Virus record (IMG/VR): IMGVR_UViG_2579779002_000006
Direction: 5' to 3' (one strand)
Length of the DNA stretch: 23,775 nt
Source: a virus
Taxonomy: Duplodnaviria > Heunggongvirae > Uroviricota > Caudoviricetes
Shown here: piece after piece, positions 1-18,750 of the stretch
Numbering within the stretch: position 1 is the stretch's first letter
Layout of the letters: every line of letters starts with the position of its first letter
The notes under the pieces: model-generated
The model's input: only the letters and a program-made list of their open reading frames with translations
What the model was told of the DNA's origin: nothing
Databases searched by the model: none
Translations under genes and position numbers: made by a program

Positions 1-561
1 GGAACGCCGCCGTATCTGGCGTAAGCTGCATCTCGCCGTTGACAGTAAAACACATGAAATCATCTGTGCAGACCTGTCGCTGAACAACGTTACGGACTCA
101 GAGGCCTTCCCCGGGTTAATCCGGCAAACCCACCGGAAAATCAGGTCAGCCGCCGCCGATGGCGCTTACGATACCCGGCTATGTCACGATGAACTGCGGC
201 GTAAGAAAATCAGCGCGCTTATCCCTCCCCGAAAAGGTGCGGGCTATTGGCCCGGTGAATATGCAGACCGTAACCGTGCAGTGGCTAATCAGCGAATGAC
301 CGGGAGTAATGCGCGGTGGAAATGGACAACAGATTACAACCGTCGCTCGATAGCGGAAACGGCGATGTACCGGGTAAAACAGCTGTTCGGGGGTTCACTG
401 ACGCTGCGTGACTACGATGGTCAGGTTGCGGAGGCTATGGCCCTGGTACGAGCGCTGAACAAAATGACGAAAGCAGGTATGCCTGAAAGCGTGCGTATTG
501 CCTGAAAACACAACCCGCTACGGGGGAGACTTACCCGAAATCTGATTTATTCAACAAAGCC
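1..561 (+). mobile_element. IS903-group (IS5 family) insertion sequence, right-hand ~560 bp; the rest lies beyond the window start
   Basis: Positions 544-561 are the reverse complement of GGCTTTGTTGAATAAATC, which I recall as the IS903 terminal inverted repeat. An open frame runs from the window start to 505 ending ...LNKMTKAGMPESVRIA. The ydfI reading frame is broken exactly at the element end. Confidence 0.8.
2..505 (+). CDS. IS903-family DDE transposase, C-terminal ~168 aa (5' end outside window)
   Basis: Frame is open from position 2 with no upstream stop; the translation (ERRRIWRKLHLAVDSKTHEIICADLSLNNVTDSEAF...) contains the listed 74-aa ORF 281..505. Assignment to IS903 is from memory of the family. 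Confidence 0.8.
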   Translation, partial: ERRRIWRKLHLAVDSKTHEIICADLSLNNVTDSEAFPGLIRQTHRKIRSAAADGAYDTRLCHDELRRKKISALIPPRKGAGYWPGEYADRNRAVANQRMTGSNARWKWTTDYNRRSIAETAMYRVKQLFGGSLTLRDYDGQVAEAMALVRALNKMTKAGMPESVRIA

Positions 562-772
562 GTTGTAAATCGGCAATTTGCTGTTCGCCGCCGATTAAGT
601 TGACCTCATAATATCCCCAGTCACTGAAATGTTCCGTAGCAAGAATATCGGCATACACGCCCTGATGCGCACGGTGAAATGCACCAAAGCCTAAATGAAC
701 AATTCTTGGGGCCAGGTTATTACGATCATAAACAGGGAGTGTCGCTTTTGCTGATAACAAATTATTTCCCAT
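562..772 (-). pseudogene. ydfI: ydfI 5' fragment (mannitol-dehydrogenase-family oxidoreductase, N-terminal ~70 aa) truncated by the IS insertion
   Basis: ORF 551..772 starts [37 protein letters not shown], a mannitol-dehydrogenase-type N-terminal dinucleotide-binding segment, and ends ...ADLQ followed by RLC-stop read from the IS inverted repeat. Confidence 0.7.
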
Positions 773-860
773 AACAATTCCTTAAATATAAATATGGCAA
801 GCTATATGTTTTGTTATATGAATAAAAATCCCCTCTCCGGTAAGAGAAGGGATTAAGGGT

Positions 861-2144
861 TTACAGACTTCTGGAAGGTTGCGCAGCTCTTACAACACGC
901 GGTTGATCTTCCGCAGCGTCTTCCAGCGCACTTAAATCACGGTCTTTCACCTCTGGCATTTGCAGCGCAGAGATTAAACCAATCACTGAATATGCCATGA
1001 TCATAATGGCGATCGGATACCAGGATTCCGTCATGGTGCAGAAAATACCCGCCAGGATAGGACCAAAACCGGAAGCGATAAGACCACCAATTTCTTTAGA
1101 AATAGCCATCCGGGTAAAGCGGTTTTTACAGCCGAACATTTCTGCCATGGTAATGTTTTCCAGAGCAAATAATCCCAGCACCGCACAGTTATGAATCACA
1201 ATCAGTGCAACCATAATGGTGCTCGGGGCATAGCTTTTATCTACAATGATAGAAAGCATTGGCCATGCCAGCACAATCGCGGAGGTATTCATAATAATAT
1301 ACGGGATCCGGCGACCAATTTTATCGGATAACCAACCAAGGAACGGAATGGTCATAAAGCCGAGAATCGAACTGATCATCAATGCATCTGTTGGAATTGC
1401 TTTGTTAAACAATAACGTCTGCACTAAATAGCCTGCAAGGAAAGTCTGAATTAACCCGGAGTTACCCGCCTGACCAAAACGCAGCCCTGTTGCCAGCCAG
1501 AAGGATTTGCTCTGGAACATGCTACCAGCAGGTGCAGGTTTTGCTGTCGGTTGGTTACTGTCGTTAACCTTCTCAAAGACCGGGCTTTCTTTCAGATTCA
1601 TACGCAACCAGATAGCAAAGACCATCACGACAACGCTCGCCAGGAACGGTATACGCCATCCCCACGCCAGCAGTTCCTCTTTACTGAGAATGAAGAACAT
1701 AAAGGCCCAGATTGCCGTTGCGCTCAAGGTTCCGCAGTTAGTTCCCATAGCCACAAATGAGGAGATAATTCCGCGCTTACCTTTTGGCGCATATTCCGCC
1801 AGCATCGTACCGGCACCGGAAATTTCCGCACCTGCACCCAACCCCTGAATAATACGCAACGTCACCAGCAAGATGGGTGCAAAAACACCAATCTGTGCAT
1901 AGGTCGGTAACACACCAATTAAGGTGGTACAGATCCCCATCATGGTGATGGTAATAAAGAGCACTTTTTTACGCCCTATTCTGTCGCCCATTTTGCCGAA
2001 AATAAATGCTCCGACAATACGCGCCACATAACCTGCACCGTAGGTTCCCATTGCCAGAATTAACGCCATTGCCGTTGATGATTCAGGAAAAAATATTTCA
2101 TGAAACACTAACGCTGCGCCGAGCGAATATAACTGGAAATCCAT
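861..2144 (-). CDS. ydfJ: MFS family transporter (metabolite:H+ symporter type)
   Basis: 427-aa ORF with multiple hydrophobic spans and the MFS loop motif G-x-x-x-D-R-x-G-R-K (GKMGDRIGRKK). Length and N-terminus match my recollection of K-12 YdfJ, and ydfI lies next to it in the same orientation. Confidence 0.9.
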   Translation of the reverse strand: MDFQLYSLGAALVFHEIFFPESSTAMALILAMGTYGAGYVARIVGAFIFGKMGDRIGRKKVLFITITMMGICTTLIGVLPTYAQIGVFAPILLVTLRIIQGLGAGAEISGAGTMLAEYAPKGKRGIISSFVAMGTNCGTLSATAIWAFMFFILSKEELLAWGWRIPFLASVVVMVFAIWLRMNLKESPVFEKVNDSNQPTAKPAPAGSMFQSKSFWLATGLRFGQAGNSGLIQTFLAGYLVQTLLFNKAIPTDALMISSILGFMTIPFLGWLSDKIGRRIPYIIMNTSAIVLAWPMLSIIVDKSYAPSTIMVALIVIHNCAVLGLFALENITMAEMFGCKNRFTRMAISKEIGGLIASGFGPILAGIFCTMTESWYPIAIMIMAYSVIGLISALQMPEVKDRDLSALEDAAEDQPRVVRAAQPSRSL

Positions 2145-2746
2145 AATTCACAGGTGTTTTTTCCCATCCTGTGGTTTCCTTGGCGTTTTCTAGGTTTTTT
2201 CAGATAGTTGCATTTTTTAAAAAGCATCCTAAGTTCGATCTCAGTGTCTATCTGGGGCCTATTTCTGTCCCATATATGCCCCAAAAAAACTCCCCAACAG
2301 ATAAGTAGTTTTTTCATGGATTTATGCGTAAAATCAAGAACGGCTGGAAATCATTCAATACTCACACTATCGAAAAATTTACCAGCCAACCGCAGCACGT
2401 TCTTGCATAAGGCGTGTCTGCGGTTTTTCAACTATTCAGATACATCACTCCCATCACATTCATTCCTCCGCATCAAAGGCATATAGGCTATATCACCTTG
2501 ATATTTTTCTTTTTCAGATAAAAACTGTTATCTATGTATACTTTTAAACCCAATCCGTGTAGAGTCTCTGCATAAGATAGTTTGCAGTTGCCGCTTCAGC
2601 TTGCGCCATAACCGCCTGATTTTTGCTGCCACCTGTTAGCATTCCTGTATACCTGAAACGACAATGTTTATCTACGAACTTTAAGAACACCCAAGATAAA
2701 AATTGTCAACTATATCATATATAACACATTACTAATTCGAGGCTAT

Positions 2747-2860
2747 ATGAACAGCATACTGATAATCACTTCTCTCCTTATCATATTCAGCATTTTTAGT
2801 CATGCCCTAATAAAATTAGGGATTGGCATATCCAATAACCCAGACAAAACCGATGTATAA
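2747..2860 (+). CDS. Candidate small hydrophobic protein, 37 aa ([37 protein letters not shown])
   Basis: ATG preceded by GAGG about 5 nt upstream; about 25 hydrophobic residues then a polar tail. Below the cutoff of the supplied ORF track; translated by hand. No homology support. Confidence 0.2.
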
Positions 2861-2928
2861 GTCAACATATCCTGAATCAGACATACAATATCGCAATGAA
2901 AATCAATAATATTTTAAGGAATATCTTC

Positions 2929-3162
2929 ATGAAATCAAAAGACACCCTAAAGTGGTTCCCTGCGCAGCTTCCTGAAGTAAGAATTATCCTAGGGGATGCT
3001 GTAGTGGAAGTAGCAAAACAGGGAAGACCTATCAATACCAGAACATTGCTTGATTACATTGAAGGAAACATAAAGAAAAAATCATGGCTGGATAACAAAG
3101 AATTATTACAAACAGCGATATCAGTTCTTAAAGACAACCAAAATTTAAATGGTAAAATGTAA
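2929..3162 (+). CDS. ydfK: YdfK/YnaE-family prophage cold-shock-induced protein (77 aa)
   Basis: Internal Met of ORF 2896..3162 (MKSKDTLKWFPAQLPEVRIILGDAVVEVAKQGRP...) with AAGGA 8 nt upstream; the 2896 ATG has no Shine-Dalgarno. 77 aa matches my recollection of K-12 YdfK, which sits next to pinQ. Confidence 0.8.
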   Translation: MKSKDTLKWFPAQLPEVRIILGDAVVEVAKQGRPINTRTLLDYIEGNIKKKSWLDNKELLQTAISVLKDNQNLNGKM

Positions 3163-3478
3163 TATAATAAACTTACTTTTTTATCATTTTTCCACTTTAA
3201 CAACATTTTGCTCCACTTTTCCACGACCAAACAACTTAAAATCTGGTTAAAATAACACGAAACACTATTCTTCTTCCTTGAGTCCGCCCGGAACTCGAAA
3301 AACAAACCGAGTTAAAGCCATTTTTCACAAAATCGATTTTGGGTCTCACCAAGATTACGGGGTTGCATACGCATTCGTTTATTTTCGAACGTGTACATAC
3401 AAATATGCACAAAAATAATCAAAATTATTTTCTGCGATGCATTATGATATGAACACCAATTTCGTATAGAGTCTCACT

Positions 3479-4069
3479 ATGTCTCGAATTTTTGCTTACT
3501 GTCGGATATCAACGCTGGATCAGACCACCGAAAATCAACGCCGGGAAATCGAAAGTGCAGGTTTTAAAATCAAACCTCAGCAAATAATCGAAGAACACAT
3601 TAGCGGCTCAGCAGCAACCAGTGAGCGTCCTAGTTTTAACCGGTTGCTTGCTCGCCTGAAATGTGGTGATCAATTGATTGTGACAAAACTGGATCGCCTT
3701 GGTTGTAATGCAATGGATATCAGGAAAACAGTGGAACAACTGACCGAAACAGGTATCAGAGTGCATTGCTTAGCATTGGGGGGCATTGACTTGACCAGTC
3801 CAACAGGAAAAATGATGATGCAAGTAATTTCAGCAGTTGCTGAATTTGAACGAGACCTTTTACTTGAACGCACTCATTCCGGGATAGTAAGAGCCCGCGG
3901 CGCAGGGAAACGTTTTGGTCGACCACCTGTGTTAAATGAAGAACAGAAACAGGTGGTATTCGAACGAATTAAGTCAGGTGTAAGTATAAGTGCCATTGCC
4001 CGGGAATTCAAAACCTCGCGGCAAACCATTTTAAGAGCCAAAGCAAAACTTCAGACACCTGACATATAA
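3479..4069 (+). CDS. pinQ: Serine recombinase, DNA invertase Pin (Gin/Hin/Cin family)
   Basis: 196 aa; N-terminal catalytic motif YCRISTLDQ (serine nucleophile), C-terminal helix-turn-helix; same length and sequence as I recall for K-12 PinQ; adjacent to tfa/stf as in Qin, Rac and e14. Confidence 0.92.
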
Positions 4070-4166
4070 AAAATAATCTCGGTGTGAGATGCTTTACGTC
4101 TTCCAAGCCCCCTTCCTTGCCGTAAATGGAAAGATACATCTAATTAAAGAATTTATATGTTTTACC

Positions 4167-4742
4167 CTACGGCAGTGCTGGCCATTCAATATCCTGTGCA
4201 GTTGACGTATCAACACGGTTCAGCAATACCCGATACTTTTTCCATGCTTCCAGCAACGAGATTTCTTCCTCCGTTGCAATTTCCAGATCTGCAGCATCCT
4301 GAAGCGGAGCAATATGCTCACTGGCTACCTGCATCAGGTTGTTTTTTGTTTCTTCCGCCTCCCGGATCCGGAACAGTTTTTCTGCTTCCGTATCCTTCAC
4401 CCAGGCTGTGCCGTTCCACTTCTGAAACTCCCCTTCCGGCGATAACCAGGTAACATTTTTCGGTAACGGACCGAGTTCAGAAATAAATAACGCGTCGCCG
4501 GAAGCCACGTCATAAACCGTTTTACCCCGATGATCTTCAACGAGATGCCACGATGACTCATCACTGTTGAAAACAGCCACGAAGCCAGCCGGAATATCTG
4601 GCGGTGCAATATCGGTACTGTTTGCTGGCAGACCTGTATGAGGCGGAATATATGCATCACCTTCACCAATAAATTCATTAGTTCCGGCCAGCAGATTATA
4701 AATTGTTATGGTCCGTGGTTGTTCACTCATTCTGAATGCCAT
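4167..4742 (-). CDS. tfaQ: Tail fibre assembly protein Tfa
   Basis: 191 aa, [44 protein letters not shown]... closely matches lambda Tfa as I recall it; start overlaps the stf stop (ATGA). Confidence 0.9.
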
Positions 4743-7700
4743 TATGCAAGCCTCACAATATAGTTAAATGCGATGTTTTTGACGGTGTTTTCCGCGTTAC
4801 CAGCAGCGTTAACGGTGATGGTGTGTCCATGTGAGCCAATCGCAACGGAGTGCGTATGAGCACCAATACCGACAGTATGTGCGTGTGCACCTGCGCTTGC
4901 AGCAGTACCCGATACAGAGTGCGTATGAGCGCCTGCAGAAGAAGTGTTAACACTGTATTTAGAATAATCAGGTGATCCACTTCCCGGAGCACCACTGGAA
5001 CCACCTGAAACAAATGTCATCGAATGGGTATGTGCACCGGCTGAAGCAGCCGTACCGCTAACACTATGGGTATGTGCACCAGTGTTATTCGTGGATTTAG
5101 TGCCGTAATCAAACGATGATGTGGTTTTCGTCCCCAAATCCGTACTGGATGCGCTGGCGCTGTGGGTGTGCGATTTAATGCCGTCCTGTTCCTGAGACAA
5201 TACGGCACGACCACTGGCGGGCTTGCCCTTAATCGTCCAGCCACGCATATCAGGAATAACGCCTGACGGATAAGCCACTGCAAGTTTCGGGTATGCAGAT
5301 TTGTCAAAAGTCTGCCCCTGCATCAGGGCATAGCCAGACGGAACGGTATCTGATGGCCACGGGATTGGTGCGCCGACTGGGTAGCTTTCTGGTGGAAGAT
5401 TTTTCGAGGTATAAACTTCTGCCCAGTCATCCTCAAAACCATAACCGTCTCTTGAAGAACGGTAGAACAGACCACCATTTCTGTAATGCGCCTTCATCTG
5501 CAATGTCCGGCAACTTCCGACTCCGGTATAGAAGTTAACCAGAATATAGCTGTCGCCAGAGCGGGTGACATTGTAAGCGCCTGATTCGGCATTCCAGGGA
5601 ACGGCTCCATCCGAATCCGCATAAGCCCCCGTCGAACGTCGGGCAAATGCACCAATATTTTCCGGCGTGAGGTTAATATCCGCCGAGCCATCAAACTTAA
5701 CACCGTTAATTTTTGGGTCTGCCGCAAGTTTCGTCGCGGTATCGGCGTTCCCCTTCAGTGCCCCGGTGATCCCATCAGTAACAGACAACGGACCTGAAAT
5801 AGTCCCTCCAGTTGTTGACAGCGCTCCAATATCTGATGGTGTAGGTTTCTGATGTGAGCTATACATCGTATAAACAACACCATCGGTAACGCTGGAAGGC
5901 TTACTCGCTGAATATGTTAGCGAGGTATAAATAGAAACTGACGCATTTGTAGTACAATCCCAATGGATATTTACACTCGTCGCATAATTGCCAATCTCAA
6001 CGTAAATATCATATATATCGCCGGATGTGTTGATCCAGGCGAAATTCGTTAATCCGACGGCTGTACGCTTCCACAAAGCTCCGGTAATCCCTTTGGGGTT
6101 TCCATTGCCTGCTCGTAGAACCAGTTCAGATATACCTGCCTGTTGAGGTGCCCCCACGTTAAATCCAGCGCCACCAATCAATGCGATGTAAACGATGGAA
6201 CTCGCTTGTGGCATGGTAACCGTTGCCAGTTTGAACCACCCTGCCCCGCCAGAGAAAGAGATCGTTACTGAATTTAAAGTGCCAATATCTTTCGGTGTTA
6301 ATGTTATATCCGCAGTCAGTGCTTTCCCGTTAACTTTTCGGTTAGATGGTACCCTGCCATTCGCATTGTCATTCGCTGCTTTAACTGCCTTCGGTGTCGC
6401 GGCAAGCGTTTCAGATGTGCTGTTGGTTGCACTGCTGAGCTGTACTATCCCCTTTTTCGTCGTGCTCGCATCCTCAAGCGCCACGGCGGATGCAATATCC
6501 TCTGCCCGTTTTGCCGCTGTCTCGGCGCGCGTTGCCGCGGATTCCGCCGTACTTTTGCTCTGAGCTGCCGCCGTCGCACTGCCAGCTGCCTCTGTCGCCT
6601 TCGTGGATGCCGTCGTGGCGCTGCCCTTTGCTGCTGACGCCTGTCTGGTCGCCTCATCTTTTGAAGCAGACGCAGATGATGCCGATGACGCCGCTGAACT
6701 GGCTGACGATGCGGCTGCCGCCTTAGAGGAAGCAGCATTGTCTGCTGAAGTCTTTGCATTTGTTTCAGAGGTTTTTGCTGCAGAAGCAGACCTCGCTGCT
6801 GCAGTGGCTTGCTCAGTGGCTTTGCCAGCCTTCGTTGTGGCTGTTGAAGCGGATGATGCGGCGCTTTCTGCCGATTTTCCGGCGGCGGTGGCACTGGCTG
6901 AGGCCTGCCCGGCACTTGTTGACGCGGCACTGGCAGATAATGCAGCCGCTGTTTTTGAACCTGCCGCAGTTGAGGCGCTCTGTCCCGCTGCTGTTTCAGA
7001 AGACTTAGCGTTCGTCTCGGACGTTTTTGCCGCCTTCGCGGAATTTCCTGCCGCCGTTGCCGAGGAAGCTGCACTACTGGCACTTGATGATGCATTCGTT
7101 TCTGAAGATTTCGCTGCCTCTTTTGAGGCCGCCGCACCCCGTGCCGAGGTGGCAGCTTCTGACGCCTTCGTGGTCGCTGTGGATGCAGAAGTGGCTGCCG
7201 ATTTTTGTGATGCTGCGGCATTCGTTTCTGACGTTTTCGCGGCACTGGCGCTGGTAGCTGCCGCGCTTTTTGATGACTCTGCAGCAGCAGCACTTTTTGA
7301 TGCCTCAGAGGCTTTTGCTGATGCCGTTCCTGCGCTGGAAAAAGCCTCCTGAGCCGACGTCGCAGCCTGTCCGGCTGACGTGCTGGCTGCACGTGCTGAG
7401 CCTGCAGCATCAGTCGCATGGGTTGCCGCCTCACGGGCTGATGTGCTGGCATCGCCGGCTGACTTCTTCGCGGCTGCCGTGTTCTGTGCCACTGCGGACG
7501 CGTTACGCGCCACCTCTTCCACCATCTGCTCAAAGCGGCGCAGTGCCTCCGGTCGGACATCATCCTCCGTCATGGCACCGAGAAAATCATTCAGCGTACC
7601 TGGTCTGGAACCTTCATAGACGGTAATGGTCCCGGCATGTGAAGGCGGAAAACCTTCAACCAGCAGGGTGACGCTGTACTGACCATGCTCAACATCCATG

Positions 7701-7849
7701 CTGTAACGTCCGGCTTCATCCGGATTTTCAGAGGCCACCGTGTTCACCACCACCGTGCTGCTGGTTCGTCTGGCCTTCAGCACAATGGTGCAGTTCTGTA
7801 CTGGTTTTCCTGTGCCATCTTTAAGCACGCCAGAAATTTTTACTGTCAT
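4742..7849 (-). CDS. stf: Side tail fibre protein Stf (1035 aa)
   Basis: N-terminus [27 protein letters not shown]... and C-terminus ...[29 protein letters not shown] match lambda Stf; long Ala/Ser/Thr-rich low-complexity stretch; a central ~330 aa not recognisable to me as lambda. Confidence 0.9.
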
Positions 7850-7862
7850 ACTTTTCCACCAA

Positions 7863-7893
7863 TAAAAAAAGCCCGCAGCAGTGACGCCACGGG
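7863..7893 (-). terminator. Hairpin plus T-run (intrinsic-terminator-like) downstream of lom, immediately upstream of the stf RBS
   Basis: On the - strand: GCCCGTGGCGTCACTGCTGCGGGC followed by TTTTTTTATT. Confidence 0.45.
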
Positions 7894-8000
7894 CTTCAGG
7901 ACAGTGTAACTTTACGTTTCCTCAAACGCAGTTCACCCCATAAGGTGGATGAACCTGCGTATCATAACAATATTTACAGAAGATAAATCGGCGTCTGTTG

Positions 8001-8600
8001 TCAGAAACGGTATCCGATACCAACAATAAATGCATCCGTTCGCCAGTCGCCACTACCGGAACCTTCATAAGCAAGGTCAATGGTCACGGATTCGGTCGGG
8101 TTAAACTGCACGCCAGCCCCCCACGCCAGAGACGTGTTGCTGTGGCGACCGTCATCACTTCCGGTCAGCACATCGTGCGTTTTCCCCTTGTTGTCAGTTA
8201 CGCGGAGATAATCCCCGGAGAAAGTCGACACACGGCTGTAAGCCACACCCGCCATCGCATACGCGCTGAACCATTCATTCACGCGTACAGACGGCCCCGC
8301 CATCACGCTGAACCAGCGGTTACGCACGGAATCTTCATGCCAGCGGGTATCGCTGTAGCGCGTTTTTTGCTCATCCTCAGCATTGGCATAACTGAAGGAC
8401 GTAATCAGCCCCAGCGCGTCCGTAAACTCATAACGGTATTTCACGTTAATCCCGTTCAGATCATCACTACCGGGAACGTTCGTCGAGGCATGGAGATACC
8501 CCGCGCTCAGCGTGGACTGATGTTCTGCTGCACTCGCTGGCGTAGCAGCGGCGACCTGCCAGACTACTGCGGACAAAATAACAGCACATAATTTACGCAT
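8001..8600 (-). CDS. lom: Lom outer membrane protein (Ail/Lom family beta-barrel)
   Basis: 199 aa, N-terminal signal peptide, C-terminal ...IVGIGYRF; near-identical to lambda Lom over most of its length (EHQSTLSAGYLHA...NGINVKYRYEFTD...). Confidence 0.9.
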   Translation of the reverse strand: MRKLCAVILSAVVWQVAAATPASAAEHQSTLSAGYLHASTNVPGSDDLNGINVKYRYEFTDALGLITSFSYANAEDEQKTRYSDTRWHEDSVRNRWFSVMAGPSVRVNEWFSAYAMAGVAYSRVSTFSGDYLRVTDNKGKTHDVLTGSDDGRHSNTSLAWGAGVQFNPTESVTIDLAYEGSGSGDWRTDAFIVGIGYRF

Positions 8601-8623
8601 AATTACCTCTCGCTTTTCTGCAA

Positions 8624-8648
8624 TAAAAAAGGCGCCATTTCTGGCGCC
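8624..8648 (-). terminator. Intrinsic-terminator-like hairpin between J and lom
   Basis: On the - strand: GGCGCCAGAAATGGCGCC followed by TTTTTT, 25 nt upstream of the lom ATG. Confidence 0.5.
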
Positions 8649-8667
8649 CGTATCTGGGTTATAAAAT

Positions 8668-8914
8668 TCAGCTAATCGTGATGCCTGCAGTGGCTTTCTT
8701 CATCACCACAACCAGCAAATCGCTGATACTTGCTGTGGGATACCAGTTATTTACCAGCCATGCTGACACCGAAAACTCCAGTGTCATGTGACCGTGACCG
8801 GCAGGCATATCAATAACACCACTGTAAATCAGCGTATTATCCAGCGCGGTACGGTTATAAATTTCAGCACCGTTTTTCCGCACTATCAGACGGCATGAGG
8901 AGAAAAATATCAGT
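8668..8914 (-). pseudogene. J: J C-terminal segment in a different frame (receptor-binding end), separated from the main J frame by an apparent 1-nt indel
   Basis: Part of ORF 8668..9165: ...[12 protein letters not shown]...SGVIDMPAGHGHMTLEF...VVVMKKATAGITIS aligns with the lambda J C-terminus (LKVLMNGAVIYDG...RIVDMPAGRGNVILTF...VQVMVIKKQALGISVV). Confidence 0.6.
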
Positions 8915-11900
8915 ATGCTCTTTCTCATGTTTAGCGCCGCTGAATGCCACCGCCGGAATAACAATCTGCCGGTCAAACGGCTGATCGTCATAAACCCTGA
9001 CGGTAATGGTTCCTGATGGCCACCGCTCCGGTGCACGGGAGTCCCGGGGGAAAGCTTTGCCCACTGTTTTAACGAGATCGCCTTCAATCTGGTTCGCGGA
9101 CAATTTTCCCAGAACCCGACAGTTCTCGTTAATCGTGACGTTGTTGAGCGTCCCGGAGTTCGCATTCACGTTACCGCTGATATCGGCATTTTTCGCCGTC
9201 AGCCGCCCGTCCGGTGTCAGGGAAAATGCCGGAGGATTACCGCCGCTGGTAATGGTGGGAGCCGTCAGATATTTCAGGAACACTTCATTCATAAATATCT
9301 GATCGCCCTGACCAACAAACATCGGCTTTGTGTTGCCATTCGCAGGATTAATCATCGCAATCCTGTCTGCCGCCAGCAGCACCTGACTCTGCATTCCTGC
9401 TGGCGTATTCTCAATACCGGCACCGATACCCGCAATATAAAGGCGTCCGTCCTGCATCTGCTGCAGTTTCACGGCCCACATGCTGTTCAGGTTATTATTT
9501 GTATCAACCTGAACTTTCTGTATCTGCTGGATTGCCGCACTCTGATTTTCCAGTTTTTTATTGACGGTCTGCGTGATTTCATTGCTGACATTCGTAATGG
9601 ACGTCCTGATTTCAGCCAGGTCCGGCGCAAGCTGACCGTTATCAATCTGCGTCCACAGCTCCTGGGCCAGATGTGTTTTCCCGATTTCTCCTTTGAAAAA
9701 ATCCAGGTAACCTTCCGCATCATCGCTCGCCCGACCGACAGCCTCCACGAATGCCGATTTGCCAACAGTATTCACACTGCGGATATAAAAATAATAATCA
9801 TGGCCCGGTTTGATATTGATACTGGCAGCTATCCAGTACAGCGCCGAGCCAAGATAGCGGGCTGCGGTTTCAACCTGCCTGATATCCGCAATCCGCTTTT
9901 CCGAGAACCAGAACTCAAACTGTACCGTCGGGTCATAAACGGCAAGATGTGGCGTTGCGGTTATCTGAAAATAGCCCGGCGTCAGCTCAATCCGCGACGG
10001 TGCTGCCGGTGCGGCAATCCGGAAGGTGGTGGTGGCAGGTTCACCCTGCTGGCCATAGCTGTTTATCGCCCGCACCGTCAGGGTGTATTCCCCGAGCGGC
10101 AGGCCGCTGAAACGGTGCTCCGTGTCTGCGGTGATGGCGGTGGTCACCAGTCTGGCATCCGTTCCCTTACCACTGGTCAGGCGCAGACTGAAGCGCACAC
10201 CCTTCACCACCCGCGGCGTGTCCCATTTCGCCTGCGCCAGATACTGGCCGTCAGCTGCGCTCACCTCCACCGTCAGGTGCTGCACTGCCGGTGGGATGAC
10301 GCTGTTCAGGGAACCTGACTGCGGCTCAAAGCGGGCACCGTTATCCACGATGGCTTCTTTTTCCGGTACGTGCTGCACCGCCGTGATGGCAAAGGTGCCG
10401 TCCGTGTTTTCCCGGATGGAGACACAGCGGAACAGGCGACGGCGCAGTGACGGCAGGGAGAGTCCCCACACCCCGTATGTCTCCACACCATCAGGCAGGG
10501 TACTGACCTGTATCCGGTCCGGCGCGGGGTGTGCGGTGATGTCCACACTCACCGGCTTACCGCTGCCGTTAATCAGGTTCACCGCCGATGTACCTGTCTC
10601 CGGCAGGGTAACCTCACGGTCCAGCGTCAGGGTGCGGGTGGCAGCATAAATGGACAGGACACGTCCGCCGGTCAGGGTCCCGGCATAGTCATTATCACAG
10701 ATTTCAATAATGTCACCGGGTGTGTGCCGCAGCCCCTGAGACCCGAGCGTGAAATCCACCGTCTGCGTTTCCAGCAGTTCGGTCTTTATCACCCACAGTC
10801 CGGCACGGTGGGCCTGACCGCGGCTGGTACAGCCGAACGCGTCCATCTTCAGCAGGTTGCGTCCGTAGCGCAGTATGGCTTCCGGGTCTTCCACCAGTTC
10901 CGTGGAGGTCTGCCAGCCGTTCTGCGGGTCGGTGTAATTCACCTCCACCGCCGTGTGCCGGTCCTTCAGGGCACTGAAGCTGTAGCGGAATCCCACGCCG
11001 TTATCATCCACCACCACATCGCTGTTGGTGTACGGCCACACCACATCCGACGGGCGGTCCTGAACGAACGTCAGCGTCTGACCGTTCCATACCGGCATAC
11101 AGCGCATCGCAGAGCAGAAATCACTGAGAACGTCCCACGCCTTACGCTGTTGTGCCAGGTACGCATTAAAGGTCATCCGCGGCTCGGTCCCCCCGAAACC
11201 ATCCGGGACCGTCTGGTCGCAGTACTGCCCGATGGCATACAGCGCCCACTTGTCCACATCCGCCGCCCCCAGACGTTTTCCCATGCCGTAGCGCGGGTGA
11301 GTCAGCATGTCCCACAGGCACCAGGCCGGGTTGTTGCTGTATGCCGGTTTCAGACTGCCGTCCCAGATACCACTGTACGTGCGTTTTTCCGGGTCATAGT
11401 TTGACGGCACCTGGATGATGCGACCGCGGATATGGTAGTTCACCGTCATCTGCTGGCCGCCGAACTGCTCCGCATCCACCTGCAGCCCCACAATGGCCGT
11501 GTTCGGGTAGCACTGTTTCACATCGATGATTTCGGTGTATGACGACCACAGCGTCTTATTCTGCAGCTGGTCCGTGGTGCTGTCCGCCGTCTCCCTGACC
11601 ATCCGGATGTTAAAGGGCCGGGGAGGCAGATTATCCAGAATCACCGAGGCCAGGAACTGTGAGGTGGTCTTGCCGTTAATGGTGACGTCCTTTTCCGTCA
11701 CCCAGCGGCCATTACGCTGTAACTGAATCAGAATCCGGACAGAGGAAGGATTACGGTCGCCCTTTGACGTGGTCTGCACCAGTGACTGCACCCCGAAGGT
11801 AACCCGCAGGCGGTCAATGTTCGCGGACGTAATGGTGCGCGTCACCGGTTTTGCCTTCGTCACTTCCACGCCCAGTCCGGTTTCAGCTCCGGAGGACTCA

Positions 11901-12142
11901 AAGCCTTCCGGTGGTGTCTGCTCCTGCTCCCCGGCGCGCCAGACCGCCGTCACACCGTGTATCACGGGATTGCCGTCCGTGTCCGTCAGTGGGGTTTTGT
12001 TCACCAGAATACTCTGCAGTCCCTTCACCGGACCTTCTATCGGTCCCTCACCAATCGCATCAATCACACTCATCATCTGCGTGGATTTGAGATTATCCTT
12101 CGCCTCACGAGGCGTGTGTGCCTTACCGCCACCTTTTCCCAT
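8864..12142 (-). CDS. J: Tail tip / host specificity protein J, N-terminal 1092-aa reading frame (frame lost near 8903-8912)
   Basis: [22 protein letters not shown]... collinear with lambda J over more than 1000 aa; the last ~16 codons ([16 protein letters not shown]) do not match lambda. Confidence 0.9.
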
Positions 12143-12248
12143 ACAGCCTTCCCCTGAATAAATTAACCGCCACTTGCCATTCCGTACAGAAGTCGGATAT
12201 CCTTCGCCCGAAAAGCATGAAACACATTTCTGCCATGCTAAAGAGAAA

Positions 12249-12280
12249 CCCCGGTATCAGCAGATACCGGGGTTTTCTTT
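12249..12280. terminator. Strong bidirectional hairpin (9-bp stem CCCCGGTAT/ATACCGGGG, 6-nt loop) with T-rich flanks, in the I-J spacer
   Basis: + strand: AAACCCCGGTATCAGCAGATACCGGGGTTTTCTTT; the - strand has TTTCTCTTT after the stem. Confidence 0.5.
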
Positions 12281-12484
12281 CATGCCCACCGATAATCCTG
12301 TTGGTTAAAACCGGTAATGGCATAAAAATTCTGAATATCTTCACATTTTCACACACTGACTGTGGCGCTTATAATTTCGCTGCGTTAGTGTTTTTTTGCC
12401 CGAGTAACAAAAACAACTCCTTAACATTGATCTTCATTTGTCTGTCCCCACAGCTCCGCGATCACTGCGGGATTTTTTTATGTT

Positions 12485-13165
12485 TTATCCCTGTCGCCCG
12501 ATAACCACGACCGTTCCGCCCCCGCCTTCATCACGGGTGCTGATGTCCTGGGATATACGGCGGGAGCCAACCAGCATTTCCCCGTAAGGCACCGGCATCG
12601 GGTTCCCCTGGGCAATCATGTTATCCAGCGAGGAAAAGTACGTGTTCTGTTTACCGTTATCCGTGCTTTTGTACTCCGGTGTTTTTGCCTTCGGGGCCAG
12701 CATCTGGGCCACACCGCCCAGTATCATGCTGGCCCCCAGTGAAAACAGCATCGTGGTGGCAGAAAAACCGCCGGCTGCCAGGGCTGTACCCCATAACGCC
12801 ATCGAGCCTCCGGCAGTGAAGAAAGAGCCCACGATGGCTGCCGCCCCCAGTACAATCTGCAGTCCACCCTTTCCGGCCCCGGCCAGTCGCGGCACAATGT
12901 GGATGACCGTTCCCTCACCCAGCTGTTCGTGAAGACGGGCATACACCGCCTCCGGTGCCGTGTCATCACCGGCAATACGTATCTGGTACCAGCCTTCGTT
13001 CATCTGACGGCGAAAGCCCGGCATCTGCATCGACAGGGCGCGAATGGCTTCCGCTGCCGTGTTCACATACAGGCTGAGGCGGCGGCCAAATCGTTGCAAA
13101 TCCCCGTGAAGGCAGATGCGTGCCAGTGGCGGTGACGCCAGACAGAATGCGTTCGTCGTTGCCAT
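12485..13165 (-). CDS. I: Tail assembly protein I
   Basis: 226 aa; ...RICLHGDLQRFGRR...IVLGAAAIVGSFFTAGG...KQNTYFSSLDNM... matches lambda gpI; 5' end overlaps K by ~100 nt, as in lambda. Confidence 0.9.
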   Translation of the reverse strand: MATTNAFCLASPPLARICLHGDLQRFGRRLSLYVNTAAEAIRALSMQMPGFRRQMNEGWYQIRIAGDDTAPEAVYARLHEQLGEGTVIHIVPRLAGAGKGGLQIVLGAAAIVGSFFTAGGSMALWGTALAAGGFSATTMLFSLGASMILGGVAQMLAPKAKTPEYKSTDNGKQNTYFSSLDNMIAQGNPMPVPYGEMLVGSRRISQDISTRDEGGGGTVVVIGRQG

Positions 13166-13806
13166 TTTTCGGAATACCTCTCCCGTTTACTCAGTTGTTC
13201 AGGCAGATGGTGAAGCAGCTCACCGTTGCCGCAGTAAATGGCGGCATGGTTCGGTACCGAAGCACCAAAGCAGCACAGCAGAATATCGCCCGCCTGTGCA
13301 GAGGACAGGGGCACCCGGTAAAAGCCGGTGACCGCCATATTGTCCAGGTAAAGGTTCTGACCGTTGCGCCACCAGTCATCCTCGCGATGAAAATCCGGCA
13401 TTTCAGTCCCCGCCAGATGATAAGCATCCCGGAACAGCGTGTAACAGTCCGTCACCCCGTGCTCAAAGCGCCGTCCTGTCAGATGTGGCACACAGCGGAA
13501 TTTGTGAATGTCACCCCGGCAGACCAGCCACCAGGGCAGTGCGCTTTTTATCTGCAGCCGCCGGTCAGCCTCGCTCAGCCAGGGCAGCCCACCGGGATGA
13601 CTGTGGACCAGTGCCACAATCTCCCCCTGCATCTCTGCCCGCAGCCAGTCTTCCGGTGCGATACGAAAATACGCCTCCGGCTCTGCGGAAATATTCACAC
13701 AAGGGATATACCGCTCCCCCTCCGGCGTGCTTATCACGAAGCCGCACGACTCCGCAGGCGCACACCGCCGGGCATGTGCCAGAATCGCTGATTCAGTCTG
13801 TGTCAT
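13063..13806 (-). CDS. K: Tail assembly protein K (JAB/MPN plus NlpC/P60-like)
   Basis: Internal Met of ORF 13063..14067 (MTQTESAILAHARRCAPAESCGFV...), matching the lambda gpK N-terminus; JAMM motif HSHPGG...SEAD present. Confidence 0.9.
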   Translation of the reverse strand: MTQTESAILAHARRCAPAESCGFVISTPEGERYIPCVNISAEPEAYFRIAPEDWLRAEMQGEIVALVHSHPGGLPWLSEADRRLQIKSALPWWLVCRGDIHKFRCVPHLTGRRFEHGVTDCYTLFRDAYHLAGTEMPDFHREDDWWRNGQNLYLDNMAVTGFYRVPLSSAQAGDILLCCFGASVPNHAAIYCGNGELLHHLPEQLSKRERYSEKWQRRTHSVWRHRHWHASAFTGICNDLAAASACM

Positions 13807-13816
13807 AAACCGGGAT

Positions 13817-14515
13817 TTACTGCGAAAGTTTATTAATGGAAAGGAAACCGCCAAAATTGCCGACATTCCTGCGCAGTTCACACCCGCGCATGCACTTGCT
13901 GCATCTGTCCTTACGGATATCCGTGGTGGGGTTGTCGAACTCATCCGCCACCGCAGGACCGTTATACCCGCATTCATCTCCCCGGTAATCCCACATACAG
14001 GTGTTCGCCAGCATGATGCGACCGGGAAACAGCGCCCCGTCCGTCTCGGTCGGTGTGGCCAGCACAAACGAGGCCGTCATGGCTGTCAGCTGCGACATCT
14101 GCTCCACCACCCAGCGGTCACTCAGCTCCTGCTCCGGGTCCGCCGACGGATTGCCCGCAACGAAATTCACCGCATCCAGAAAACGGGCATACACCCGGCG
14201 GCGGACCACCGTGGCCCCCACCAGACTCTGCAGGTCCTCCGCCATCCCGATGACAAGGCCAAACAGATTGGACACCGTCAGCGACGGGCGGGCACTGCTG
14301 CCCCGGCCGTTCATCTCAAAGCCGCTGCCGTCAATCGGGTATGCCTCATACTTACGCCCCTGCCAGGTGACCGGCTCCCCTTTTTCATTCAGCTCATTAC
14401 AGAAAAAATACCGCTCACCGCCCTGTACCATCAGGTCGATTTCCCAGAGTACCACCCGCGGTGACTGCTCTGATTTAACCGACTCGTTCAGACTTTCTTC
14501 GTGAATATCCTGCAT
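13817..14515 (-). CDS. L: Minor tail protein L
   Basis: 232 aa, MQDIHEESLNE...VVLWEIDL...GERYFFCNE...NVGNFGGFLSINKLSQ; same length as, and near-collinear with, lambda gpL. Confidence 0.92.
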   Translation of the reverse strand: MQDIHEESLNESVKSEQSPRVVLWEIDLMVQGGERYFFCNELNEKGEPVTWQGRKYEAYPIDGSGFEMNGRGSSARPSLTVSNLFGLVIGMAEDLQSLVGATVVRRRVYARFLDAVNFVAGNPSADPEQELSDRWVVEQMSQLTAMTASFVLATPTETDGALFPGRIMLANTCMWDYRGDECGYNGPAVADEFDNPTTDIRKDRCSKCMRGCELRRNVGNFGGFLSINKLSQ

Positions 14516-14856
14516 CAGTTCACCACCTGCTCAATCGTACAACTGAAATCACTGTACCTGGCGTTATCTGTGACGCTCCACTCCCGGCATACCACCCTCA
14601 CCGTCCGGTTATGTTTCGGCGGTCGCCACAAAAAGGCACGGTAACCACCATGCCACGATAAAAACTCTTCCAGCCATCGCCGGGTCGCCTCATCCGTCAC
14701 CCGGAACACCGCCTGAAACGTCTTCAGTCGGGCATTAAGTCCCGTCGGGCGGCGCTGTTCATAACCGTCACCAAACCGTACCCTCGCCACCGACGGTTTC
14801 TCACTCACCTGCATCCCTTCACGCGGGACCAGATGCAGCGTTTTTATCTCAGCCAC
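14515..14856 (-). CDS. M: Minor tail protein M
   Basis: 113 aa; ...VRFGDGYEQRRPTGLNA...FLWRPP...EQVVN resembles lambda gpM; stop overlaps the L start. Confidence 0.9.
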   Translation of the reverse strand: MAEIKTLHLVPREGMQVSEKPSVARVRFGDGYEQRRPTGLNARLKTFQAVFRVTDEATRRWLEEFLSWHGGYRAFLWRPPKHNRTVRVVCREWSVTDNARYSDFSCTIEQVVN

Positions 14857-15943
14857 TCAGCATTCCTCCGTCACGTCGCATGGACAGCATCACCGCCTGC
14901 ACCCGCTGGTCAATCAGTTGCACAAGGCTGCCCGCAGCTTCCGGCCCTATCTGGCCATTAGTCCCGTCATTCTGAATGGCGATATGGTAGACCGGGGAAT
15001 ACACCAGACCTGCACTGCCGTTCATACTGCCCACCGCTCGCACACCCAGCGAGCCATCCGCCGCCCGGGTCAGGGGCATAATGGCTTCAGGACCGGCCTC
15101 CCCCATCAGTCCCGCCCCTTTTGCAAAGGCAAAGTACGTGGGCGTATCCACAATACTGTTGCTGTACGCACTCAGGTTTGCCGAGGTATACACCCCGCCT
15201 TTTGCATTGGCCACCGCACCGCCCAGCCAGCTACCAATACTGCCGATAAATCCTCCCGCTCCGGACATACTGTTTGCCGCCGTCTTGATCCCGTTGACAA
15301 TCGCGGCATTCATAAGAACTTTTGATATTTCCTGCAGCACTGATGAGGCCCAGCTGCGCCATTCCACTTTATTTCCGTTCAGCATCTCCGTGATGTTATT
15401 CACCATCCCTGAGATACCCTCCGTCGCCAGCTGTGCTGCCTGTGAGGCGTAATCGGACGCATTATCCACCCAGTTACTGAATCCCTCCTGCAGCCCTTTC
15501 TGCCAGTCCGCACGCTGCACATCCGATTCGGCATAAAAGGCTTCCTGCTCTTTCAGACGTTCACTCAGATACTGCGCGTTCTGTGCCAGAGCCTGTCTGT
15601 AAAAATCCTCACTGATATCCCCGGTCTGATACTGAGACTGAAGGTCCGCATCCTTCTGGCGGAAACTGTCGCGGATCTGCTGCAACTCCCGCATGCGTTC
15701 ACGGAGCCGCTCTCCCTGCCCGTACCCCAGCAGTTCCGCTTCATTTGATGCACGCGCAGCCACATTATCATTCTTCAGGGTCTCTTCCCGGGACCGCAAC
15801 TGCTCCCGGATTTTTTGCTGGTCAATCAGGGCCGCATTGCGCAGCAGTTCCTGCTTCTGCATCTCCGTCAGGGTTTTCAGTTCGCCCTGCGCAGTCTGGT
15901 ATTTCAGCTTCGCCAGCTCTGTATTCTGCCCCGGGATTTGGGT
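14849..15943 (-). CDS. H: Tail tape measure protein, C-terminal segment in a shifted frame (open from about 15943; listed ORF begins at internal Met 15862)
   Basis: C-terminus ...HIAIQNDGTNGQIGPEAAGSLVQLIDQRVQAVMLSMRRDGGMLSG resembles the lambda gpH C-terminus (...NNDGTNGQIGPAALKAVYDMARK...MRDGGLFSG); the two frames overlap over ~15907-15943. Confidence 0.8.
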   Translation of the reverse strand, partial: TQIPGQNTELAKLKYQTAQGELKTLTEMQKQELLRNAALIDQQKIREQLRSREETLKNDNVAARASNEAELLGYGQGERLRERMRELQQIRDSFRQKDADLQSQYQTGDISEDFYRQALAQNAQYLSERLKEQEAFYAESDVQRADWQKGLQEGFSNWVDNASDYASQAAQLATEGISGMVNNITEMLNGNKVEWRSWASSVLQEISKVLMNAAIVNGIKTAANSMSGAGGFIGSIGSWLGGAVANAKGGVYTSANLSAYSNSIVDTPTYFAFAKGAGLMGEAGPEAIMPLTRAADGSLGVRAVGSMNGSAGLVYSPVYHIAIQNDGTNGQIGPEAAGSLVQLIDQRVQAVMLSMRRDGGMLSG

Positions 15944-18009
15944 TTATTCGCCTCGTTATTGCGCCAGGCTTCCAGGGCATTACTGATATAACGTTGTCTC
16001 GCCTCCTGATACGGTTCACCCACAAAACCGAGGTCATCCGCCGCATACCCCAGCCGGACACGCTCTTTTTCTTCCCCTTTCAGTCTGGACAGGGCCAGCT
16101 CACGCTCTGTTTTTGTCAGGGCACTCTGCTGTTTATCATCCAGAGTGGCCTGTGGCAGCCGTAACGGCACATTCACCAGTCCCTGCCGCTGCTGAAGCAG
16201 TTCATTACCCAGCCCCAGCAGACGGTTGAATTCCGTATGCTGACCGTTCATAACCAGCATGGACTGGTACACCTTATTCTGCTCTGCCGCCTGCTGACGA
16301 ATTAACGCCACACGACGGTCTTCCAGCCCGGCAAGCACATCCTGAATGGACTGCGCTTTTTCCTGCATCTGTGCCAGACGGGACTGCTCAACGGCAAGCT
16401 GCTCTGTTGCCTGAGAAAGCCCTTCCGTCACGGTCTTCACCGATGTCAGATGGTTTATCATGAATCCGTCACCGGTTGTCCAGCCAGGGTTAGCCAGAAC
16501 ATACTGATATCCAGCGATTTTTTCCTGCAGGGATTTCACCCGGCTGGCCTGTTCATCAATCAGCCGGTTCTGCTCTGCCAGCGCCGCCCGTGTTCGTCCT
16601 TCATTATCTGAGGCTTCAGGCAAAGACATTGACGGCGTTTTATGCGCGATTTCATCTATCGTCAGTGCATACTGGCGCGCTGACTCCCTGGCCTGCTCCT
16701 GATTCTGGTACAGCGTATACCATGCTGCTGCCCCCAGCATCACCAGTCCGGGTACGCCACCAACCAGTCCCAACGCACCAGTCATCAGACGTGAGCCCAC
16801 CGCCGTTGTACTGTTCAGCGCATTCTGGGCTGCGGTTCTGGCAGCAATATTTCTGTTCAGGCGTTCCTGTGTGGCCGCCAGACGGGCTTCTGCAGCAATC
16901 TGCATCTCCGTCCCGCGGGCTGCCGCCACAGCCTGCTGTGCACGGTACACGGCTGCCCTTGCCCGCGCCGTGGCAATCTGCGTCCCCCTGAGCTGTGCTT
17001 CCGCCAGTGCCACTTCATTACGTGCTGCCGTCACAAGTCCTGCCGTGGCAGACACCGCTCCGGAGGCCATATTGCCAAAGTACCGGGCAACCCCGACGGC
17101 AACCAGCGCCCCCGCGGCTGTTGCCACATTATCAATATTACCGGCAACACCGTTCAGCACGCCGGAGAGCGTTTTCGTCGCTCCGCTGGCTTCATTCGCG
17201 CCACCCACCCAGGCCATAAAGGCGTTTTCCACCTTTGTGATCCCGTCAGAGACCGTTTCCGGCATGGCGGCATATTCATCACGCAATACCCCCAGCTGGC
17301 TGATTAACGCAGGAACGACTTTATCCGCCGTCAGTTTGCCGTCGTCCGCCATCGCCTTAAGGTCTTTACGGGCCACGCCCATACCCGCAGCCAGTGCACG
17401 TACGATCCGGTCTCCGCTTTCATTGACCGAATTAAATTCCTCACCGCGTAACACACCCTGTGCCAGCGCCTGGCTGAACTGGGTGATCACCGAGCCCGCC
17501 TCTGCCGTACTGGCACCGGAGATTTTCAGCCCCGTGGAAATGGCCTCCGTCACCTTCAGCACATCATCAGCACTGTAACCATATTCACGCATTGAGGCTG
17601 CCGAGCGGGCAAACAGGGCCGCATTATCTGAAAATGCCGTGCCCGTCCGCTGGCTGATATCCATCAGCACTTTCTGTGATGACGAAAATTCATCGGATGA
17701 CTGCGACGCCTGTTTCAGTCGGGCATTCACGGAACTCCATTCATCGGCCAGAGAAATCAGGTGTCCGGTGGCAAAGGCCCCTGCAAATGCCCCCGCCGTT
17801 CCGGCAGCTGAAGCGCGGATTTCCGTCAACTGGCTGTTCAGCTCAGCCAGGGCGCGTCGCTGCTCCCGGGCGACTGCGGCAGCCTGACGCCCGCCATTCT
17901 GCAGGGTCCGGTAATATTCACTGCCCATGCGGGAAGCCCGCTGGATCTCCGACTGGAATGACTGCGAATTTGCCGAAATTTTGATAATCAGTTCACGTAA
18001 CGTCGCCAT
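15904..18009 (-). CDS. H: Tail tape measure protein, N-terminal 701-aa reading frame
   Basis: Long helical, Ala/Gln-rich ORF at the tape-measure position (after G/T, before M); GGAG-type RBS before the ATG; frame stops at 15904. Confidence 0.85.
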   Translation of the reverse strand: MATLRELIIKISANSQSFQSEIQRASRMGSEYYRTLQNGGRQAAAVAREQRRALAELNSQLTEIRASAAGTAGAFAGAFATGHLISLADEWSSVNARLKQASQSSDEFSSSQKVLMDISQRTGTAFSDNAALFARSAASMREYGYSADDVLKVTEAISTGLKISGASTAEAGSVITQFSQALAQGVLRGEEFNSVNESGDRIVRALAAGMGVARKDLKAMADDGKLTADKVVPALISQLGVLRDEYAAMPETVSDGITKVENAFMAWVGGANEASGATKTLSGVLNGVAGNIDNVATAAGALVAVGVARYFGNMASGAVSATAGLVTAARNEVALAEAQLRGTQIATARARAAVYRAQQAVAAARGTEMQIAAEARLAATQERLNRNIAARTAAQNALNSTTAVGSRLMTGALGLVGGVPGLVMLGAAAWYTLYQNQEQARESARQYALTIDEIAHKTPSMSLPEASDNEGRTRAALAEQNRLIDEQASRVKSLQEKIAGYQYVLANPGWTTGDGFMINHLTSVKTVTEGLSQATEQLAVEQSRLAQMQEKAQSIQDVLAGLEDRRVALIRQQAAEQNKVYQSMLVMNGQHTEFNRLLGLGNELLQQRQGLVNVPLRLPQATLDDKQQSALTKTERELALSRLKGEEKERVRLGYAADDLGFVGEPYQEARQRYISNALEAWRNNEANKPKSRGRIQSWRS

Positions 18010-18026
18010 TCACCTTTCTCCGGGCG

Positions 18027-18048
18027 TAAAAAAACCGCCTCAGCGGTT
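18027..18048 (-). terminator. Hairpin plus T-run between T stop and the tape-measure RBS (attenuator or terminator-like)
   Basis: On the - strand: AACCGCTGAGGCGGTT followed by TTTTT, then GGAGAAAGGTGA-ATG. Confidence 0.35.
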
Positions 18049-18056
18049 CTCATCAT

Positions 18057-18371
18057 TCATGACTGTGCTGCAAAGCTCAGCGCGTCTTCCAGCGCCGCAA
18101 ACGGATCCACCTCCGGCTTATCCTCATCCTCGCCCCAGCAGAGCATGGCGTCCTTCAGTGCAACATTCATCCCCTGTGCCCCAAAAACCGCTTTCACGAT
18201 CTGTGCATTACGGATATCCCCGCGCTCATCACCCAGCGGGGATACCCTGTCGAACTCCATCCACATCATCGCCTCGCTCACACTCAGGCTGTGCCGCAGT
18301 TCGGATAAGGTGCGCCCCAGACGGAGCGCAAGTCGCATCAGAAAGCGAATTTCCGGGCGGGCTACTTTTTT
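18057..18371 (-). CDS. T: Tail assembly chaperone frameshift extension (gpT analogue; expressed as a G-T fusion by -1 frameshifting)
   Basis: The -1 frame is open from the slippery site through ORF 18057..18338 (...KKVARPEIRFLMRLALRLGRT...); no independent RBS. Confidence 0.7.
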   Translation of the reverse strand, partial: KKVARPEIRFLMRLALRLGRTLSELRHSLSVSEAMMWMEFDRVSPLGDERGDIRNAQIVKAVFGAQGMNVALKDAMLCWGEDEDKPEVDPFAALEDALSFAAQS

Positions 18372-18736
18372 CTGGCCGACTCTGCATCAGCGATCAGTTC
18401 CAGTGCCTGACGCAGCAACCGGGCATGTACCGGACCATAGACGGCCAGCACCTGCTCACGGTCGTCCGGAGCGAACACCCGCTGCAGATCCGTATCACAC
18501 AGGACATCGCAGAACAGCGTCACATCCGCTTCCAGGTTACGGCGGGTTTTCGCCACCACCGACAGGGTATCGTCATCCTCTCCATCACCATTGAGCACTT
18601 CCTGCCACAGATACCAGGCCTCTGCCGAAGGCTCCCGCAGCACCACGCTGACATTACCCCATTCCGGCACCTTCACCGTTTTATGACGAAACCCTGACAG
18701 TCTGGCCAGCGCCAGCGTTTTCAGATCCTTTTTCAT
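18362..18736 (-). CDS. G: Tail assembly chaperone (gpG analogue)
   Basis: ORF 18362..18784; I prefer the internal start MKKDLKTLALARLSGF... at 18736 because the 18784 start would overlap V by 34 nt. Acidic small protein immediately after the major tail gene; ends ...ARKK at the slippery site. Confidence 0.75.
   Translation of the reverse strand: MKKDLKTLALARLSGFRHKTVKVPEWGNVSVVLREPSAEAWYLWQEVLNGDGEDDDTLSVVAKTRRNLEADVTLFCDVLCDTDLQRVFAPDDREQVLAVYGPVHARLLRQALELIADAESARKK
18365..18371 (-). promoter_or_regulatory. Programmed -1 ribosomal frameshift heptamer A_AAA_AAG at the 3' end of G
   Basis: - strand reads GCC AGA AAA AAG TAG; the heptamer A AAA AAG is the same slippery sequence used by E. 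coli dnaX; the -1 frame continues into T. Confidence 0.6.
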
Positions 18737-18750
18737 GATGACCCATCCAC

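Follow-up and report, generated by a model that had tools for sequence, protein, structure and literature searches.

In a Qin-site lambdoid prophage of Escherichia coli, an 82-bp deletion between short direct repeats splits the tape measure gene

The DNA examined here, the 23,775-nucleotide IMG/VR virus record IMGVR_UViG_2579779002_000006 (Caudoviricetes; hereafter the window, meaning the whole stretch), carries the tail and head-tail module of a lambdoid prophage of Escherichia coli. Within it, gene H, which encodes the tape measure protein, lies on the minus strand in two pieces that belong to different reading frames. We conclude with high confidence that a recent, heritable 82-bp deletion between two copies of the pentamer CGGGG has turned the gene into a pseudogene, within a decaying lambdoid prophage at the Qin site. 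The deletion itself is seen directly on comparison with intact homologues, while its mechanism, replication slippage or illegitimate recombination, is one that we infer from the footprint alone.

Results

The tape measure gene occupies two reading frames

The ORF (open reading frame) list and a three-frame translation both place the tape measure gene in two ORFs, of 701 and 337 residues. The N-terminal fragment (15904..18009, minus strand), delimited by the ORF list, translation, Pfam matches and alignment, starts with ATG and gives a clean 701-residue translation. It comprises 694 native codons, followed by seven out-of-frame codons (RIQSWRS, 15927-15907) and a TGA stop codon at 15906-15904, and its C-terminal end accordingly reads ...NNEANKPKSRGRIQSWRS*. 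The C-terminal fragment (14849..15943, minus strand), delimited by translation, alignment and Pfam matches, lies in the -1 frame. This frame is open from 15943, right after a TAA at 15946-15944, and reads on as ...IPGQNTELAKLKYQ... to the end of the gene at 14849. It is native from codon G721 (15931-15929), and its first ATG, at 15862 (M744), defines the 337-residue ORF (14849-15862). An earlier note, made from the letters and the ORF list, had described a tape measure gene split in this way, with the 701-residue frame stopping at 15904, the C-terminal frame open from about 15943 and the switch between them within 15907-15943. Translation confirms both boundaries, the ORFs, Pfam domains and identity to an intact protein confirm the split, and the one CGGGG that the gene retains there, at 15933-15929, falls within the predicted interval.

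Family domains of the lambda/HK97-type tape measure protein were found above their curated thresholds and are distributed across both fragments. The 701-residue piece matches TMP_3 (2.8e-58, 197.3 bits, cut-off 41) and Phage_HK97_TLTM (4.9e-91, 305.4 bits, cut-off 24), and the 337-residue piece matches Tape_meas_lam_C (4.8e-19, 68.6 bits, cut-off 23). As expected for a tape measure, the split gene has the G/T tail chaperones on one side and the gpM-L-K-I-J tip genes on the other, in the domain order Phage_TAC_1, Phage_tail_T, tape measure gene, Phage_min_tail, Phage_tail_L, NLPC_P60, Lambda_tail_I and J. The N-terminal fragment is 100% identical in amino acid sequence to residues 1-694 of the intact 1080-residue protein of strain 102651, and the C-terminal fragment is 100% identical to residues 721-1080 of the same protein. 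Because both fragments carry tape measure domains and are identical to the two sides of one intact protein, they represent a single split gene and not a chance pair of ORFs.

In its domains, its position in the tail module and its identity to the protein of strain 102651 on both sides of the break, the gene resembles those of lambda gpH and HK97-type tape measure proteins. It differs from them in being interrupted, with 82 bp gone and 701 residues encoded instead of 1080. No single uninterrupted frame spans the N-terminal, ruler and C-terminal parts, the break lying at 15933-15929; since the frame is interrupted, the gene is a pseudogene of the lambda/HK97-type family rather than a functional member of it.

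An 82-bp segment between two CGGGG repeats is missing

To locate the lesion, intact homologues were compared with a 651-bp query across the break (window 15600-16250). By BLAST, the query matches homologues in two pieces that together span 733 bp, a difference of 82 bp, and alignment of the window with E2348/69 and phage JLK-2012 shows one clean gap of 82 bp. The nearest intact relatives are those of strain 102651 (WP_021520064.1), E2348/69 (WP_000212986.1) and phage JLK-2012 (gene H), in all of which the gene is a single 3243-bp coding sequence for 1080 residues.

In the intact gene, CGGGG occurs at nucleotides 2077-2081 and 2159-2163, with a spacing of exactly 82 bp. The intact allele reads AAATCC-CGGGG-TGGAAAA...GGCACTTG-CGGGG-CAGAAT and the window allele AAATCC-CGGGG-CAGAAT; one copy of CGGGG and the 77 bp between the copies are missing, together 82 bp. 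The deletion junction is the single remaining CGGGG (15929..15933, minus strand), on which the alignment, the repeat coordinates and the BLAST spans agree, and an undeleted allele can be recognised by GGTGGAAAATCAGAGACG...GGCACTTG. The loss removes residues 695-721 plus one nucleotide, that is, 27 codons and 1 nt. As 82 is 27 x 3 + 1, everything after G694 is read in the -1 frame: seven wrong codons, then a stop.

Spontaneous deletions in lacI between short direct repeats, by slipped-strand mispairing, were reportedly described by Albertini, Hofer, Calos and Miller in 1982. The lesion in the window has the same features: the lost segment is flanked in the parental sequence by 5-bp repeats, of which one survives, and its length matches the 82-bp distance between them. 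At a junction placed at random, 5 bp or more of microhomology would arise with a probability of about 0.0046, so that the microhomology seen here is longer than the chance expectation. The present case differs from the known ones in offering a footprint only and in having no predicted hairpin that would align the repeats. The intact segment, searched for a hairpin that juxtaposes both CGGGG copies, folds no better than shuffled sequences (z = -0.31, 64 of 200 shuffles equal), and no structural help for slippage can therefore be claimed. The footprint is nevertheless the classical one of slipped-strand mispairing or microhomology-mediated deletion between short direct repeats.

The long form is widespread. 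Full-coverage matches to the query were obtained in 91 phage records and 1,155 E. coli records, and the 733-bp span is present in the best 30 of the 91 phage records and in the best 30 E. coli records. When 40 E. coli records were sampled at even steps down the ranking, 36 had full coverage and every one of these 36 spans 733 bp, at 99.4%-94.2% identity. Overall, the long form occurs in 1,149 of 5,426 E. coli genomes and in the 91 phage records, down to 94% identity.

The junction is shared by a near-clonal group of prophages

Carriers of the deletion allele surfaced through exact-protein look-up only. In a public assembly collection, the exact 701-residue product is present on 22 contigs and the exact 337-residue product in 47 blocks. 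The same junction string was found in fetched loci L004-L011, L012, L014, L016, L018, L019 and L020. The fetched loci with the junction represent 12 distinct assemblies, in which the junction is the same base for base: four NCBI isolates (GCA_000627475.1, GCA_000627455.1, GCA_013355445.1 and GCA_053192715.1), four Logan re-assemblies (ERR4920117, SRR28532237, ERR10900706 and SRR13773693) and four ENA gut metagenome assemblies (ERZ28645594, ERZ28626133, ERZ28625308 and ERZ28642679). In GenBank, the two pieces from E. coli 1-182-04_S3_C2 and C3, exact matches of 701 and 337 residues, have been deposited as separate proteins, among others EZJ76819.1 and EZJ76818.1.

Between the window and the carrier prophages there are only 1-4 single-nucleotide polymorphisms (SNPs) over 6-19 kb, with the tandem-repeat region excluded. 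Strain 102651, which has the nearest intact prophage, shows only five further differing sites between 5505 and 15933. As carriers and intact relative are nearly identical, the deletion is recent and of single origin. Its presence in independent assemblies and in GenBank makes it an allele inherited within a near-clonal prophage rather than an error. One SNP, at 17779, is private to the window, the other base being present in all other carrier loci and in the intact relative; it leaves the 701-residue protein unchanged and is hence synonymous.

The same tape measure gene carries an independent 934-bp deletion in related, more degraded prophages (L013, L015, L017 and L021). In the coordinates of the intact gene, this deletion runs from about nt 1267 to about nt 2200, and its two sides overlap by about 10 bp at the junction; in L013, for example, the tape measure gene region is 8707-11014. 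Here too the frame moves by -1, and what remains is a 444-residue ORF plus the identical 337-residue ORF. The head genes of these prophages are lost as well.

Consequence for the tape measure product

At 701 residues instead of 1080, the truncated product is missing the final 386 of the intact protein, and with them the C-terminal domain of lambda type. The gpH protein of lambda is trimeric, and its C-terminal helix (residues 818-842 of 853) forms a coiled coil in the lumen of the tail tip, supported by gpI (PMC10721106). The tape measure protein of TP901-1 cannot do without its C-terminal 60 residues (PMC5099701). By analogy, a 701-residue protein without the C-terminal 386 residues would fail to start a tail on the tip complex, and the truncated protein should be unable to nucleate one there.

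The C-terminal fragment would hardly compensate. A GGAG abuts the ATG at 15862 with zero spacer, and without a spacer, independent initiation of the 337-residue ORF is probably poor, making efficient production of this protein unlikely. Even if made, the product would be without the ruler and chaperone-binding parts.

Alternative explanations of the break

The earlier note had left the choice between a real inactivating indel and a homopolymer sequencing error, and had proposed, besides reads or resequencing, alignment to intact homologues as a way to find the indel. That alignment did locate an indel, and the inactivating change is real, but it is an 82-bp loss between CGGGG repeats and not the gain or loss of one base in a C, G or T run. 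Short runs (CCC, GGGG and AAA) do occur near the junction, and the -1 relation between the frames is what the loss of a single base would give. The alignment gap, however, is 82 bp and not 1 bp, and on this ground a one-base homopolymer indel was rejected. Nor does a change of one base restore the single frame of about 1050 residues that the note had envisaged: the repair gives an ORF of about 1052 residues, found in no homologue, whereas intact homologues have 1080. With the same sequence in 12 independent assemblies, it is scarcely credible that a homopolymer error, or a true 1-bp indel, splits an otherwise intact gene of about 1050 residues. An assembler that skipped 82 bp is an extremely improbable source of the junction. 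Draft contigs do underlie the data, and assemblies rather than reads were inspected, but a 5-bp repeat is far shorter than any assembler's k-mer, the NCBI, Logan and ENA assemblies agree on the junction, and carriers that lie a few SNPs apart are different isolates. Because different runs and assemblers give the same 82-bp loss, homopolymer and assembly artefacts drop out, and sequencing error is effectively excluded. We give practically no weight to the reversed polarity, in which the short form is ancestral and 82 bp were inserted in the other genomes. This is a formal possibility with no other support; the long form has the single ORF and is the widespread one, and the short form is restricted to one near-clonal prophage.

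A genuine deletion could still leave some function, either through occasional -1 slippage in the 37-nt overlap, yielding a 1052-residue protein, or through fragments that work as separate polypeptides. We consider this very unlikely. A 0/-1 overlap does exist (15943-15907), and it contains the codons CGG GGC AGA ATA, at which the P-site tRNA-Gly could slip from GGC to GGG before AGA and ATA, both rare codons in E. coli. Neither fragment has other damage, a tail takes only a few copies of the tape measure, gpH being a trimer (PMC10721106), and in-frame deletions in the TP901-1 tape measure gene give shorter yet viable tails (PMC5099701). A recent origin (1-4 SNPs per ~17 kb) does, however, account for the intactness of the fragments. 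The canonical slippery heptamer X XXY YYZ is absent from the overlap, with none in the zero frame between 15950 and 15904, and the two-frame layout was seen in no homologue inspected: every one of the 30 best phage records and of the 30 best and 36 sampled E. coli records has the extra 82 bp. A programmed -1 frameshift was rejected on these two grounds. In addition, the ATG at 15862 is without a properly spaced Shine-Dalgarno sequence, and the tail-tip gene J is also broken (see below), so that selection for tail function appears to be absent. Less likely still is the specific case of a leaky break in which tRNA-Gly slips by -1 on G GGC before AGA and ATA (15930-15922), giving a 1052-residue protein with 27 residues fewer in frame. 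If this did occur, about three copies per tail could suffice, the tails would be about 4 nm shorter (at 1.5 Å per residue), and the slip would be an adventitious 'saviour' frameshift that rescues the deletion allele.

Several points do weigh against a recent deletion that has inactivated the gene. The loss of function is argued from lambda and TP901-1 and not from this phage. The fragments are free of further mutations, which fits a very recent event and is by itself no proof of lost function. A second, closely related prophage could possibly complement the defect in trans (PMC2669165), or repair it by recombination; since sibling prophages can complement (PMC2669165), the loss of one gene copy need not fully immobilise the element. 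The allele is also rare. Its junction is present in none of 5,426 complete E. coli genomes, in which megablast gave two-piece intact matches only, and the exact junction was not found in GTDB species representatives, IMG/VR viral contigs or JGI metagenome contigs. Finally, the evidence for the junction comes from assembled contigs and not from reads, which bears on the frequency of the allele within a culture.

Prophage context and the lesion in gene J

From high to low coordinates, the module comprises the portal gene (22383-23747), a repeat-containing 461-residue ORF, the connector, head-closure, HK97-gp10-like and gp17 genes, the major tail protein gene V, the chaperone genes G and T, the split tape measure gene, M, L, K, I, J, lom, and the tail-fibre and tail-fibre assembly genes; its tail part thus has the order V, G/T, H, M, L, K, I, J, lom, stf, tfa.

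Comparison with the intact J of strain 102651 showed that the tail-tip gene J (8668..12142, minus strand) is frameshifted at 8903/8904 (within 8864-9165), where the window has TTTTT and strain 102651 has TTTA. The lesion leaves a 1092-residue ORF (8864-12142) and a detached C-terminal receptor-binding remnant that matches Ig_GpJ_C, and the other carriers have it as well (L014, L016 and L018). Disruption of at least one essential morphogenesis gene is a feature of defective prophages, and here both the tape measure gene and J are disrupted; the truncation of the one and the lesion in the other mark this prophage as defective.

The left end of the window (1-4300) has the arrangement ydfI'-IS903B-ydfJ-ydfK-pinQ-tfaQ of the Qin prophage site. 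The window starts inside the transposase of IS903B (1-560), an IS5-like element that interrupts ydfI, a gene of the mannitol dehydrogenase family, and this element is probably the reason that the contig ends there. Over positions 1-5623, the window matches one end of the Qin-site prophage of strain 102651 at 99.86% identity, a stretch that includes IS903B, ydfI', ydfJ, ydfK, pinQ, tfaQ and stf at its 3' end. From 5063 to 23775, the identity is instead 99.2-99.8% with a second prophage of that strain, which lies next to ompW/yciE, about 290 kb away and in the opposite orientation, with the crossover falling within the tail-fibre gene. This mosaic suggests recombination between prophages or a prophage-mediated chromosomal inversion.

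The 461-residue ORF (21001-22386, minus strand), between the portal and head-tail connector genes, contains a 162-bp (54-residue) tandem repeat at 21467-22161, with 4.3 copies at 96% identity. The number of copies varies: in L012, L019 and L020 the ORF has 353 residues, and in strain 102651 there is an additional copy. In that strain, PGAP labels the portal and the repeat ORF together as 'portal protein, frameshifted'.

A likely site of programmed frameshifting lies upstream of the tape measure gene. On the minus strand, gene G ends with ...AGA AAA AAG TAG, in which the heptamer A AAA AAG (18371-18365) directly precedes the stop codon (18364-18362), and the T frame (18057-18338) comes after this stop. 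The heptamer is likely the programmed -1 G-T frameshift site of the module, where lambda has G GGA AAG. The lambda-type sequence GGGAAAG was also considered and rejected, as its four matches are at chance level and none is in gene G. The split tape measure gene resembles the G-T system in having two overlapping tail-gene frames related by -1. It differs in that the recoding site lies upstream, at G, and the break in the tape measure gene is without a heptamer.

Discussion

In E. coli O157, lambdoid prophages are as a rule defective and have frameshifts and deletions, and complementation between siblings is possible (PMC2669165). The prophage in the window shares its type of damage, frameshift and deletion in morphogenesis genes, with the cryptic lambdoid prophages Qin, Rac and e14 of K-12 and with the Sp pool of O157 Sakai. 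With K-12 Qin it also shares the site, ydfJ-ydfK-pinQ-tfaQ. It differs from K-12 Qin in being much earlier in decay, since it retains a complete tail module and, at the least, the portal, and shows only point-like lesions in this window, in H and J. Nothing specific to this lesion came up in a search of the literature, and the type of lesion is already known: this is an ordinary inactivating deletion.

For annotation, the two 'tape measure' proteins EZJ76819.1 and EZJ76818.1 in GenBank would be better described as one pseudogene. The case also carries a caution: when a gene falls into two frames near short base runs, a homopolymer error is not the only explanation, and it is the comparison with intact homologues that decides. 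The 82-bp junction provides a clean marker of one near-clonal prophage in human-gut E. coli isolates and metagenomes. For the biology of these elements, the finding agrees with what is established about pools of defective lambdoid prophages in E. coli, and no new mechanism emerges from it. What it offers is a snapshot of very early prophage decay, in which two small lesions, in H and J, have struck a tail module that is otherwise 99.8% identical to an intact one.

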